NCBI GenBank assembly: GCA_963845085.1
Contig: CAWJQI010000004.1
Span: 64,001 to 128,000, forward strand
Length of the DNA: 64,000 nt
Direction of reading: 5' to 3'
From: Candidatus Fermentibacterota bacterium
GTDB lineage: Bacteria; Fermentibacterota; Fermentibacteria; Fermentibacterales; JCC-6
A program made the position numbers and the translations under genes. The notes under the pieces are model-generated. The model worked only from the letters and a program-made list of their open reading frames with translations, ran no database searches and had not been told where the DNA came from. Of the stretch, positions 43,624-49,519 are shown piece after piece; the stretch's first letter is position 1, and the number at the start of each line of letters is the position of its first letter.

Positions 43624-43652
43624 TGGTGTCGCGTGTTGGAAGGAATTCGACT
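43624..43652. repeat. Most degenerate copy of the tRNA-3'-end-like (att-like) site
   Basis: TGGTGTCGCGTGTTGGAAGGAATTCGACT; 19/29 ungapped matches by eye to the 46647/48043 copies. Confidence 0.45.
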
Positions 43653-43779
43653 GAGAGCATCCACAGAGAAACAGGATTTCTGTACAGGGTTCACAAGTGA
43701 AGCTCTTGCTTTTGCGAAAAGTATAACTTACAATATCACTGTTACAGTACAGTATAGTTTACGTAAAGGATACTGAGCG

Positions 43780-44109
43780 ATGACTCGAACCCTTGATCTC
43801 AAAAGGCCGATACCCGTCCAAAGGGCCATCCGAAAGCTCGGACAGGACATCAGGGATGCCAGACGACGGAGAAGGCTTTCCACGGCACTTGTCGCCGAGA
43901 GGGCGGGTATCAGCAGAGTAACGCTGTCAAAGCTGGAAAAGGGCGATCCCGGAGTCTCCATAGGAATCATCGGTTCTGTCCTGATGGCACTCGATCTTCT
44001 TGACAGGTTAAACGATCTCGCTGATCCCCGGTACGATCTTCTGGGAAGAATGCTTGAAGAGGAACAGCTTCCGCAGAGAATTCGTGAAAGAGCAGTTAAG
44101 AAGGGGTGA
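43780..44109 (+). CDS. XRE-family HTH antitoxin (HipB-like)
   Basis: LGQDIRDARRRRRLS...VAERAGISRVTLSKLEKGDP; directly upstream of HipA. Confidence 0.88.
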   Translation: MTRTLDLKRPIPVQRAIRKLGQDIRDARRRRRLSTALVAERAGISRVTLSKLEKGDPGVSIGIIGSVLMALDLLDRLNDLADPRYDLLGRMLEEEQLPQRIRERAVKKG

Positions 44110-44110
44110 G

Positions 44111-45358
44111 ATGAACCCGGTGTTCGTCTACATCGATCTGGAAGGCAGGGCCGTACAAGTGGGCCGCATGTGGATCCATGCCCGGGGACGGAGAGAGAGC
44201 GCAACATTTGAGTACTCCGGTTCCTGGCTTGCATCCCCGGCCTGTTTCGCCCTTGAACCAGCCTTGTCAGTTGAGGAAGGATCACACAACACAAGAGAGG
44301 GGCTTCCGGTCTTCGGGGCAATCGGAGATTCCGCGCCTGACAGATGGGGTCGGGCTCTGATACGCCGGGCCACTCTGAGGGCGGACAGGGAGAAAGGCGC
44401 GACTCCCCGGACACTTAGGGAGATCGACTTCCTGCTCGGGGTGAACGATGAAGCCCGAACGGGTGCTTTGAGGTTCTCGTTTACGGAAGGTGGCCCGTTC
44501 CTGGCGCTGGGTACCGGCGCAAGCATCCCGCCAATTGTTGAACTGCCAAAACTGCTTGCAGCGTCAGACAGCCTGTTGCGTGAAGAGGAGTCGGGTGAAG
44601 AGCTCAGGCTCCTTCTCGCACCGGGCTCATCCCTGGGGGGAGCACAGCCGAAAGCATCCGTTAAAAAGGACTCTCAGCTCTTCATCGCAAAGTTTCCCAG
44701 TTCTGTTGACAGCTACAACAGAATTGTCTGGGAAGCGGTTGCCCTTGATCTTGCAGAGAGGTCGGGAATCACGGTTCCTGAAAGATGGCTTCAGCAGATC
44801 GACGGCAGGCAGGTCTTGATCCTGAAGAGGTTTGACAGAAAAGGAAATATCCGGATCCCATTCCTGTCAGGCATGAGCATGATCTCAGCAAGGGACAATG
44901 AAACGCACAGCTACCTCGAACTTGCAGACCGGATCAAAGCGCACGGAGCATTTCCCGACCGGGACCTTCACGAACTGTGGAAAAGGATCGTTTACACGGT
45001 TCTGGTATCAAATGTGGACGACCATATGAGAAATCATGGATTCCTTCTCCACAACCGAAGTGGCTGGGTTTTGTCCCCGGCATTCGACCTGAACCCTACG
45101 CCAGTGGACATTGCCCCCAGGATACTGACTTCAGCGATCGACATCGATGATCAGACTGCATCCATTGATCTGACCCTTGATGTAGCGCCATACTTCAATG
45201 TCAGTGCTGAGGACGGAAGAAGGTGCATCAGGAGCATCGCACAGGCTGTCTCAAAATGGAGGAGGGTTGCATCCAGCTACGGGATTTCCCGCTCCGAGAT
45301 CGAAAGGATGTCTTCCGCCTTCGAACATGAAGATCTGCACAGAGCAACAAGCATGTAG
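44111..45358 (+). CDS. hipA: HipA-family kinase toxin
   Basis: DSAPDRWGR, SLGGAQPKAS, IAKFP, RFDR, NVDDHMRNHGFL, LSPAFDLNP. Confidence 0.95.
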   Translation: MNPVFVYIDLEGRAVQVGRMWIHARGRRESATFEYSGSWLASPACFALEPALSVEEGSHNTREGLPVFGAIGDSAPDRWGRALIRRATLRADREKGATPRTLREIDFLLGVNDEARTGALRFSFTEGGPFLALGTGASIPPIVELPKLLAASDSLLREEESGEELRLLLAPGSSLGGAQPKASVKKDSQLFIAKFPSSVDSYNRIVWEAVALDLAERSGITVPERWLQQIDGRQVLILKRFDRKGNIRIPFLSGMSMISARDNETHSYLELADRIKAHGAFPDRDLHELWKRIVYTVLVSNVDDHMRNHGFLLHNRSGWVLSPAFDLNPTPVDIAPRILTSAIDIDDQTASIDLTLDVAPYFNVSAEDGRRCIRSIAQAVSKWRRVASSYGISRSEIERMSSAFEHEDLHRATSM

Positions 45359-45388
45359 GAAAGTTCCTTTGTTGTTGCATAGAAGAAA

Positions 45389-45414
45389 GGCCGCCGGTTC
45401 AGTTTCCGGCGGCC
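45389..45414. terminator. Hairpin terminator, copy 1 (repeated at 46610)
   Basis: GGCCGCCGG-TTCAGTTT-CCGGCGGCC, followed by TTT on the minus strand. Confidence 0.75.
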
Positions 45415-47961: not shown

Positions 47962-48042
47962 AGTATCCCTCCTGCAGACAGAATCTCTATTGGAGAGATA
48001 AATAGATTGTCTTGCCGGGTCAAGCATTGGTCGATAGGTTGT

Positions 48043-48115
48043 TGGTGCCCCCTGGTGGACCTAATTTGAACAGGCTTCAGGTACGAGATTGCCCTATGAA
48101 GAAAGGGCCGCTGCC
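48043..48115. repeat. att-like site (48043-48071) plus flank
   Basis: Identical to 46647-46719; resembles the reverse complement of the tRNA-Arg(CCT) 3' end TGGTGCCCCTGACATGACTTGAAC. Confidence 0.9.
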
Positions 48116-48147
48116 GAAGCAGCGGCCCTGCACTCGTTGGCAAACGA

Positions 48148-49362
48148 CTACCTGACCAGCACCACCCTTGCCGTGGCGAATTCCGAACCGCTGGCGAGGC
48201 GAACCAGATACACCCCTCCGGGCATGGGTTCCCCTCGAAGCCCCGTACCGTTCCAGATCAAGGTTTGCTGCCCAGGAGAGACAGCGGTTACTTCCTGCTG
48301 GTGAACCCGACGGCCTGAGAGGTCGAAGATTTCCAATGTGACGGAAGCAAGACCCGGAGAAGTGAATTGCAGTGTAGCATGGGACTCGAATGGGTTGGGA
48401 TAGATGGAATTGATCCCCAGGGTTGTGGGGTCTATACCTACGTGTTCTAAGTGTTCAATGGAAGTGAGTTCCTTCAGGCCGAGGCTGTGACCGTATCCCC
48501 CCGCAACCGCCATGAAACCCTCGTTCGGTTCAGGTACATCGCACTGGCCGAACTGATTGCTACCCCACGCCACGATGGAGCCGTCCTCCTTCAGCCCGAG
48601 GCTGAAAAGGCTTCCCGATGCAACCGCCACGAAACCGCTGTTCGGGTAGGGAACAGTGCACTGGCCGTAGTCGTTCAACCCCCACGCCACAATGGAGCCG
48701 TCTTCCCTCAGACCGAGGCTGTGTACGTATCCCCCCGCAACCGCCACGAAATCGCTGTTCGGGGAGGGAACATTGCACTGGCCGCACTGATTGTTACCCC
48801 ACGCCACGATGGAGCCGTCTTCCTTCAGACCTAGGCTGTGGTAAAACCCCCCCGCAACCGCCACGAAACCGTTGTTCGGGGAAGGAACACTGCACTGACC
48901 TTCATCGTTCCACCCCCACGCCACGATGTAGCCGTCTTCTTTCAGACCTAGGCTGTGATACTGTCCCCCCGCAACCGCCACGAAAGGACTGGAGTCAGGA
49001 ACATCGCACTGGCCGTAGTCGTTCCAGCCCCACGCCACGATGGAACCGTCTTCCTTCAGACCGAGGCTGTGATCGCCTCCCGTTGCAACCGCCACGAAAC
49101 CGCTGTTCGGGGAAGGAACATCGCACTGGCCGAACTGATTGCTACCCCACGCCACGATGGAGCCGTCCTCCTTCAACCCGAGGCTGTGAGCGTCCCCCGC
49201 CGCAATCGCCACGAAATTCTCGTTGGGAGACGGAACATCGCACTGGCCGTCGTAGTTCCAGCCCCACGCCACGATCTCCCAGTTCCACTGTGCGAGCCCG
49301 GTTCCAGAAATGACAAGTAGAAGCAGCATTGAGAGCGATACCGAACTTAGGATGGTTTTCAT
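48148..49362 (-). CDS. RCC1/BLIP-II-like 7-repeat beta-propeller protein with signal peptide and T9SS-type CTD, copy a
   Basis: Seven ~39-aa repeats FVAVAGG..HSLGLKEDGSIVAWG.N..GQC.VP.PN; IYPNPF..IFDLSGRRV..GGVYLVRL..ARVVLVR. Confidence 0.9.
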   Translation of the reverse strand: MKTILSSVSLSMLLLLVISGTGLAQWNWEIVAWGWNYDGQCDVPSPNENFVAIAAGDAHSLGLKEDGSIVAWGSNQFGQCDVPSPNSGFVAVATGGDHSLGLKEDGSIVAWGWNDYGQCDVPDSSPFVAVAGGQYHSLGLKEDGYIVAWGWNDEGQCSVPSPNNGFVAVAGGFYHSLGLKEDGSIVAWGNNQCGQCNVPSPNSDFVAVAGGYVHSLGLREDGSIVAWGLNDYGQCTVPYPNSGFVAVASGSLFSLGLKEDGSIVAWGSNQFGQCDVPEPNEGFMAVAGGYGHSLGLKELTSIEHLEHVGIDPTTLGINSIYPNPFESHATLQFTSPGLASVTLEIFDLSGRRVHQQEVTAVSPGQQTLIWNGTGLRGEPMPGGVYLVRLASGSEFATARVVLVR

Positions 49363-49442
49363 AGTATCCCTCCTGTTTGAATTTTTCTATTGGAGAGATA
49401 AACAGATTGTCTTGCCGGGTCAAGCATTGATCGATAGGTTGT

Positions 49443-49519
49443 TGGTGCCCCTGACATGACTTGAACATGTGGCCTACGGTTTAGGAAACCGCCGCTCTAT
49501 CCAACTGAGCTACAGGGGC
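49443..49519 (-). tRNA. tRNA-Arg(CCT)
   Basis: GCCCCTGTAGCTCAGTTGGATAGAGCGGCGGTTTCCTAAACCGTAGGCCACATGTTCAAGTCATGTCAGGGGCACCA; upstream TTGACG-17-CATAAT. Confidence 0.95.

Follow-up and report, generated by a model that had tools for sequence, protein, structure and literature searches.

In integrons the integrase IntI goes with an attI site, and the attC sites carry a RYYYAAC...GTTRRRY foldback; dif and pdif sites have XerC and XerD arms on either side of a variable 6-nt spacer. Here we describe a gene array that resembles an integron in its outcome, found in a 64-kb stretch (the window) of contig CAWJQI010000004.1, positions 64,001 to 128,000, from a Candidatus Fermentibacterota bacterium. 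Coordinates below refer to the whole window unless a contig or locus is named, G000 stands for the window's own genome, and other G and L labels for relatives' genomes and loci. At the 3′ end of tRNA-Arg(CCT) (49443–49519, minus strand) stand four small units, each closed by a short site. As in integrons, the array is polar, its integrase-free units are rich in toxin–antitoxin (TA) and defence genes, and their order varies; unlike integrons, it has serine chemistry, tRNA-end entry and an own upstream region for each unit. An earlier interpretation made from the letters alone (the sequence-only reading) had proposed an integron-like capture system with a tRNA-derived site, which is not borne out, since none of the four sites has the attC pattern or fold and there is no resident IntI. 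Their central bases are also conserved (partly set by the search pattern), unlike those of dif and pdif. Instead, the sites are very probably the element-side (P) half of the attP of a large serine recombinase (LSR); this attP would lie inside the LSR's own gene, and each site would encode the enzyme's detached C-terminal tail (W-C-P-L-V-D on the plus strand).

Described systems closer in mechanism are compared here on the accessible parts of the cited papers. The ssrA islands of Dehalococcoides stand in tandem, and 16 of 31 carry an integration module (McMurdie et al. 2011, PMC3146451); its DsiB is a reverse-strand serine integrase of about 540 aa whose 3′ end overlaps attL, and the authors propose that it is complete only on the circle. 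Shared features are the tandem arrangement at the 3′ end of a tRNA-like RNA and a conserved element-side motif upstream of the direct repeat. The Dehalococcoides islands differ in entering the T-loop of tmRNA, whereas the target here is the CCA end of several tRNA isoacceptors, and in their six-gene module (with DsiA, ParB and Mom), in place of which we find one LSR with two family-less genes, a helix-turn-helix (HTH) gene, a methylase and a BglII-type nuclease as neighbours. Within its accessible text, that paper does not recognize in the site the tail of the integrase itself, shifted by 5 nt, and reports no permuted units of 1–2 kb. Phage-type LSRs such as LI Int of Listeria A118 (PMC3783163, accessible part) have the same three domains and the same 5-bp motif shift between attP and attB; in contrast to LI Int, attP here would be part of the integrase gene, a tRNA end is targeted, the right arm is apparently free and the box stands about 2–3 nt farther out. 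Cis-mobilizable elements (CIMEs) of the ICESt1/ICESt3 type have lost their integration and transfer genes, keep attL and attR, accumulate in tandem at the 3′ end of a gene and are open to mobilization in cis (PMC5704250, as far as accessible). The window's units likewise have no integrase or transfer genes and keep attL/attR. At loci L262–L264 a helper LSR element stands directly upstream of shared units, from where it may mobilize them in cis. The tRNA-targeting examples in the accessible part of that paper have tyrosine integrases and conjugative helpers, whereas here the helper is a serine enzyme, no conjugation genes were seen, and one- or two-gene units are shared across species. In its outcome the array resembles an integron and in its probable mechanism CIME accretion, and it belongs to neither family as defined.

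Like the islands collected by Islander and TIGER, the array is bounded by a tRNA and a far-end fragment and is tandem, but its units fall outside the scope of those tools. TIGER (PMC12424338) requires an integrase and at least 2 kb, and excludes integrase-free and sub-2-kb islands, and the 2015 Islander paper (PMC4383910) states, in the part accessible, that serine recombinases are not known at tRNA genes. The main text of Durrant et al. does not contain the word 'tRNA'. The accessible portion of a preprint on tycheposons lists an LSR in 27 of 937 tRNA-linked elements, so LSRs linked to tRNAs have been noted before. What the accessible text of Integrase-On-Demand says on tRNAs brings nothing further on this point. 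A literature search, judged on listings and abstract openings and with subscription journals mostly outside its coverage, found no account of such arrays at tRNAs.

The sites differ in layout from the tRNA end and are not copies of it. On the tRNA strand a site reads GTTCRA, 5 variable bases, GTCC, 5 extra bases and 9 bases resembling the acceptor 3′ strand, and the distance from GTTC to CCA is 29 nt in the site against 24 nt in the tRNA, so the extra length of about 5 nt seen by the sequence-only reading is real. Sites 1 (48043–48071) and 2 (46647–46675), both on the plus strand as are the other two, are identical, as that reading had said; their sequence gave 2 matches against 0.00 expected (100 shuffles) and is unique in the genome at that level. 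Site 3 (45425–45452), slightly diverged as also claimed, is 28 nt long through the deletion of one base. Site 4 (43624–43652), a decayed P half-site that encodes WCRVLEGIR, does match at 19 of 29 positions ungapped, which alone is not above background (across the whole genome, 10 positions reach that score and 2 reach 20). We accept it as real because the homology of its unit with that of G005 stops at 43622, where G005 has a clearer site. A degenerate pattern derived from the four sites matched exactly those four against 0.01 expected, a test that is partly circular. A loose regular expression for tRNA ends gave 1249 mostly chance matches and was superseded by flank-anchored and profile scans, the latter with 10 matches against 2 in the reversed control.

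The assignment to an LSR rests on what the sites encode and on where intact LSR genes end. Site 1 encodes WCPLVDLI and a stop, next to TGFRYEIAL and a stop up to 48099, and site 2 together with the adjoining hairpin stub encodes KAAGSVSGGQYSFWCPLVDLI and a stop, a whole LSR C-terminus. The TGA in sites 1 and 2 was considered as a mark of decay and rejected, intact elements at this tRNA carrying TGA at the same codon. All 13 out-of-lineage loci examined encode the tail W-x-P-x-V-D-x-F/L-R, with small variations, on the strand opposite to CCA. Across 134 distinct sites the variation is largely synonymous at Asp (GAC 62, GAT 50) and Arg (CGA 64, AGA 36), codon and frame counts that are partly circular, the site profile having been derived from pattern-selected matches. 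The recombinase family PF07508 is matched in 26 of 60 genomes of the bacterial family, where in 16 of 29 LSR loci examined the open reading frame (ORF) enters a called tRNA in antisense, and in another 8 it ends in WYP or WHP at a tRNA-like end. Other LSR groups of the family (L177–L205, L208–L225) enter the ends of tRNA-Asn, Arg(ACG), Glu, Ser and Gln. Of the 3837 homologues of one same-genus LSR, the best 120 mostly stop just past the Trp or finish with tRNA-antisense residues; two end in ...NDLFSIWCP, the antisense of tRNA-Arg(CCT), and three keep a W-x-P-x-x-D/N-x-F-R-T tail (a regular expression had flagged five, of which two proved false on inspection).

The 5-nt offset fits the same assignment. 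Six loci combine an LSR with opposite-orientation sites 6.6–9.3 kb from the LSR 3′ end; in five the spacing is 24 nt at the LSR end and 29 nt at the far end, and in the sixth the LSR ends in site-like sequence. The same pair of spacings is seen in L262 and L263. In serine integrases the motif bound by the zinc domain lies 5 bp closer to the centre in attB than in attP (Rutherford et al. 2013, PMC3783163, accessible part), which would explain the 24 versus 29 nt if GTTCRA is the zinc-domain motif, as we infer. The T-loop-to-CCA end of the tRNA would then be the B half of attB, with the crossover probably within its last 3–4 bases; a tRNA of identical sequence is entered by an intact LSR gene in L262. 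LSR elements have a short common core of 2 bp; here the smallest block of identity between element ends is CCA (L231) or ACCA (G052), with no fixed dinucleotide, so insertion would never alter the tRNA. Among 164 contexts, some stubs show an inverted GTTC box that peaks at +18 after CCA (15 of 40 matches), an attB-like spacing that would renew the target; the window's stubs have no such box at +18.

Intact helper elements occur at the orthologous locus of relatives. The sequence-only reading had suggested a look for recombinase genes abutting the motif, and these were found in relatives as LSR genes with matching sites, including some at this very tRNA. A metagenome scan with one WCP-ending protein returned 11 loci, of which 8 were examined; five have the hemW–tRNA-Arg(CCT) setting (three also with lepA) and represent two distinct elements. 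Their LSRs terminate in ...NDLFSIWCP or ...TDLFSIWCP and a stop inside the tRNA, antisense to it, and in all three of the tRNA-Arg(CCT) helper loci that are long enough a matching far-end site lies 8.4–8.9 kb off. In L262 the order is tRNA, LSR, two genes without family, HTH, methylase, BglII-type nuclease, cargo, site, a deleted MNT unit, site and conserved flank. L263 and L264 have a similar element followed by a site, an MNT unit with 94.5% identity to the window's, a further site and an AbiEii gene. The stub behind the first site of G005 encodes KKVVGLSPNDLFSIW, the same 15 residues as the helper LSR end. The helper LSRs of L262 and L263 have resolvase, recombinase and zinc-ribbon domains and lie next to the attachment site; no second recombinase was found beside them. 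A 131-aa gene upstream of the helper LSR is a candidate for a directionality factor. The LSR matches the CcrB model with an E value of 3e-18, far below the model cut-off, and gives a weak sequence match to 4KIS/6DNW and TP901-1; among the best matches listed, no phage relative exceeds about 27% identity.

The recombinases of G000 itself offer no better candidate. Two small serine recombinases (225 and 231 aa) were rejected, as they are without the C-terminal domains and abut neither tRNAs nor sites. There are three tyrosine recombinases, all away from the array and all scoring below the TIGR02249 cut-off; the candidates examined and rejected were an ssrA-island integrase, XerD and a 278-aa orphan. 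The island (C5:310483-333552) is an ordinary 23-kb one, whose tyrosine integrase ORF also enters the RNA gene and whose displaced 24-nt fragment has no offset, in contrast to the LSR sites. The orphan (window 701–1537) is tyrosine-recombinase-like with altered catalytic motifs (WLRH, LLGI), and a match of similar size and score is present in most of 25 genomes searched across the order. That a tyrosine recombinase acts on the sites, be it an integron integrase, XerC/D on a dif-like 28-mer or this orphan, is very improbable. Such an enzyme would suit the span of the site, 11 + 6 + 11 nt on the plus strand, the spread of similar-size orphans across the order and the longer IntI-like genes of some relatives; however, the latter have no sites nearby and were rejected, none of 18 tyrosine-recombinase loci has an adjoining site, and tblastn of 20 site loci found no tyrosine recombinase. 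The dif reading was also dropped, as a dif-pattern scan did not return the sites and the conserved central hexamer (in part a product of the pattern) is unlike dif. An integron integrase is further disfavoured by the missing attC, and the orphan by a score below the integron cut-off and its altered motifs, whereas an LSR accounts for both the sequence and the offset of the site.

The sequence-only reading had the gene order of the array right (two RCC1 genes, MNT-HEPN, HipBA and four sites), and also the lack of a recombinase in 37941–49442 (none among 11 ORFs scanned). Unit 1 (48043–49442, minus strand, 1400 nt) holds a gene for an RCC1-repeat protein with a C-terminal FlgD/T9SS-type (type IX secretion system) domain (ORF 48148–49362), followed by a terminator and site 1; a related unit starts directly behind the tRNA in G001 and behind the MNT unit in G002. 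Unit 2 (46647–48042, minus strand, 1396 nt) carries a second RCC1-repeat gene, frameshifted in this assembly, and its end with site 2 is common to G001. Hairpin stubs lie on the distal side of the sites (46598–46642 and 45377–45421). The one that opens unit 3 (46598–46646, plus strand) encodes KAAGSVSGGQYSF(W), resembling the stretch that leads up to the Trp in LSR genes, and looks like a terminator when read on the tRNA strand; the one that opens unit 4 (45377–45424, plus strand) is 89% identical to it. Unit 3 (45425–46646, minus strand), the MNT unit, contains a nucleotidyltransferase gene (45874–46524) and a HEPN-like partner (45477–45926), PADLOC PDC-M05A/B; the partner matches no Pfam family, the HEPN label being that of the sequence-only reading. 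Full or nearly full-length copies with 87–94% identity exist in G002, G004, G005, L263 and L264. Unit 4 (43624–45424, plus strand) comprises genes for a HipB-like HTH protein (43780–44109) and HipA (44111–45358), transcribed towards the tRNA in the orientation opposite to units 1–3, and is 90.6% identical over 1739 nt in G005, stopping at site 4. The clear promoters claimed for three of the four units are not supported by the scan: only the MNT unit has a sigma-70-like match, and the scan gave 4 matches against 2.4 expected.

Comparison of tRNA-Arg(CCT) loci across relatives, which had been proposed as a check, showed that units vary in presence and order, with breakpoints at the site. Reading outward from the tRNA, the order is RCC1, RCC1, MNT and HipBA in the window, MNT and RCC1 in G002, AbiE, HipBA and MNT in G005, and helper, MNT and AbiE in L263/L264; no single total order fits these four arrays. 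G004 has MNT at the tRNA, G001 (on two contigs) an RCC1 start at the tRNA and an RCC1 end at a site, G003 a stub and then the flank, a near-empty site, and G006 an AbiE remnant; in G007 the tRNA stands at the end of a contig, so that nothing can be seen there. The relatives thus provide a series at one locus, with loci that hold the helper, loci from which it has gone, a nearly empty one, and arrays that share units but place them in incompatible orders. Homology of the units begins and ends at sites, the exceptions being the truncated last unit of G005 and the deleted unit of L262. At four-fold sites the identity to the window is 0.63–0.97 for cassette genes (12 comparisons) and 0.32–0.51 for core genes (22 comparisons with lepA, hemW, arsC and a glyoxalase gene). 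Since the cassette values lie above those of the core genes, the units crossed species lines after the hosts diverged, and they thus move between species.

That the array is an assembly artefact or a collapsed duplication has a negligible probability: unit 2 and a PQQ-repeat gene do contain assembly frameshifts and no sequencing run covering the strain was found, but units with the same ends recur in independent genomes and contigs, and the two RCC1 units cannot be a collapsed duplication, since they are only 79% identical (1072 of 1353 alignment columns). In the read search the best share of the region's words in any run was 0.14; four runs assembled at 82% gave short contigs of relatives, and none of the 15 joints examined (of 65) is at a site. 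Neither identical gene order among relatives nor breakpoints off the motif nor a collapsed duplication, all named by the sequence-only reading as counter-evidence, was encountered. It is improbable, too, that the units are independent ruins of full elements, with order and sharing due to natural transformation and to homologous recombination between the short repeats and no further part for the LSR. The internally deleted MNT unit in L262 and the truncated array end in G005 speak for this, and the MNT unit of G004 opens with a different stub than the window's, fitting exchange at the hairpin; against this, the repeats give only about 10–70 nt of imperfect identity, the boundaries lie at CCA in several species, and the flanking core genes are near synonymous saturation while the cassettes are not.

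We therefore favour a scar array left by LSR elements. The elements would be a family of integrative elements of 7–9 kb, whose LSR gene has attP in its final codons. On integration at the CCA end, the tRNA would stay intact, the body of the LSR gene would come to lie antisense against it and the tail (W-x-P-x-V-D...) would be stranded at the far end; the stranded half would be the 'site', with its GTTC box 5 nt farther from the crossover than the T-loop box of the tRNA, as in attP versus attB, and the window array would be the remains of such elements. Each new element would enter at the tRNA and push older units outward. A helper may sometimes excise via a more distal site and take downstream units along to a new host, and may later leave by precise excision or by deletion down to a hairpin stub, dropping its passengers at the tRNA; this ride and drop-off would require an enzyme that tolerates almost any sequence to the right of CCA. 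What the comparison of loci shows, on sequence evidence, is the identity of site and enzyme family, helpers at the locus, fixed unit boundaries, transfer between species and a permuted order; the whole account, ride and drop-off included, we consider rather probable, with considerable room for doubt.

Several observations weigh against this account, besides the partial circularity of the codon and frame counts. No full LSR was found in G000, an assembly that is 88% complete, nor was any transfer machinery recognized in the helper. Kin loci are not independent, L263 and L264 are nearly the same sequence, and neither circles nor excision junctions were seen in the short contigs of relatives. Gene-free spacings of 66–71 nt, which occur in 20 of 101 adjacent site pairs (runs with sites 68–69 nt apart lie at L231:11183-11319 and L206:6374-6511), are not obviously explained by ride and drop-off. 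In the accessible part of PMC3783163, canonical serine integrases allow no pairing but attP × attB without a directionality factor, which means that re-use of an occupied tRNA end is assumed.

With the same enzyme and sites, the 1.2–1.8-kb units and the 68-nt empty units could instead be non-autonomous and moved singly in trans by a visiting LSR, shuffled as in integrons, an alternative that we regard as possible though doubtful. The many gene-free spacings favour this in-trans route, whereas the ride-along route is favoured because helpers are found in cis, beside the same units. Movement in trans would also fit the fixed boundaries with three pairwise order reversals, the two RCC1 units that have identical sites yet 79% overall identity, and one C25-peptidase unit that in G000 follows a tRNA-like end and in the relatives G001 and G003 stands at tRNA-Arg(TCT). 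Apart from the cis helpers and the absence of circles in those short contigs, it faces internal junctions that look like P and P′-derived halves, pairings that are disfavoured for known serine integrases (PMC3783163, accessible part), and a 1.2-kb circle has no evident route between cells. Thus, where the sequence-only reading had cassettes added at the tRNA by a recombinase in trans, discrete units and their addition at the tRNA stand, and strictly in-trans action on free mini-cassettes is not required by the data, which helper ride-along explains as well. In its widest, equally tentative form, this alternative would be a serine-integrase analogue of the integron in several phyla: a widespread LSR clade using the CCA end as a renewed entry site and mobilizing in trans, within and between genomes, non-autonomous units that consist only of the final codons of the LSR's own gene and range between empty ones of 68 nt and defence packets of one or two genes.

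A scan of the genome and its relatives, likewise suggested beforehand, uncovered further sites in G000, in the family and in other phyla. Asp-type sites lie behind tRNA-Asp of G000, at C4:757203 and 755217 with a decayed one near 744510, and others of this type are on C1 at 1557, 6931 and 8489; Arg(TCT)-type sites are on C5 at 78547, 79448 and 254921. The tRNA-Asp array type (C4:744500-762332, C1:1557-8489) has the tail WRSVLDAFRT, large T9SS-tailed cargo and an addiction module; for its C1 part, the 48 kb upstream contain no tRNA. On C5, the arrays at 76467-79448 and 249463-254921 have a decayed tRNA-Arg-like gene and a bare tRNA-like end as their anchors; their C25-peptidase unit is the one seen at tRNA-Arg(TCT) in G001 and G003. 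With one mismatch allowed, the site pattern is present in 25 of 60 family genomes and absent from the reversed control; a second pattern matched 6–18 times per genome in four family genomes and not at all in one genome of another family. Exact scanning of species-representative genomes gave 83 stretches; among the 80 listed, judged by record title, 15 are outside the lineage (Bdellovibrionota, Saccharibacteria, Thermotogae, Bipolaricaulia, and two titled Thorarchaeota), the remainder being titled Fermentibacteria, Sabulitectum, Aegiribacteria or uncultured bacterium. At one Saccharimonadales locus (L141:871-6671) tRNA-Arg(TCT) is followed by six sites with mostly single-gene units of 0.4–1.4 kb. 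Viral contigs had 0 matches to two site patterns.

Other features surround the array. A tRNA-Arg(TCT) (37864–37940) faces tRNA-Arg(CCT) at 11.5 kb, and the DNA between (37864–43623) is patchy across the genus. It contains an AAA_14/DUF4143 unit (37941–39240, minus strand; PADLOC PDC-S01) directly behind the facing tRNA, a cassette of a sister site type that in G004 is placed elsewhere, behind a WYASADAFRT-type site; the PQQ-repeat gene, of which two other tRNA loci in G000 have copies nearby; and a YCF48-repeat gene that is placed elsewhere in G005. The window also encodes tRNA-SeC (62734–62830), and a conserved flank gene (L036:5153-6156) has an in-frame TGA in a TG(stop)GSC motif, possibly marking a selenoprotein. 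Just behind tRNA ends we also noticed a short repeated element with the core CATCACCATTAAGGGGGG, at L037:3795-3825, at L046:1640-1672 and at both tRNA-Glu genes of G000.

A tandem serine-integrase island with a split gene was already known at ssrA of Dehalococcoides (PMC3146451, accessible part), which limits the surprise. For small gene stacks at tRNAs, which island finders pass over by design, the present analysis offers a probable enzyme and an account of the site, and it documents serine integrases that appear to target tRNA genes, which the 2015 database paper (PMC4383910), in its accessible part, had called not known. The comparative series at one locus makes the questions of cis versus trans and of directionality, that is, repeat insertion at an occupied site, testable. 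For serial genome insertion, interest would attach to an integrase able to use its target repeatedly and to accept a free right arm.

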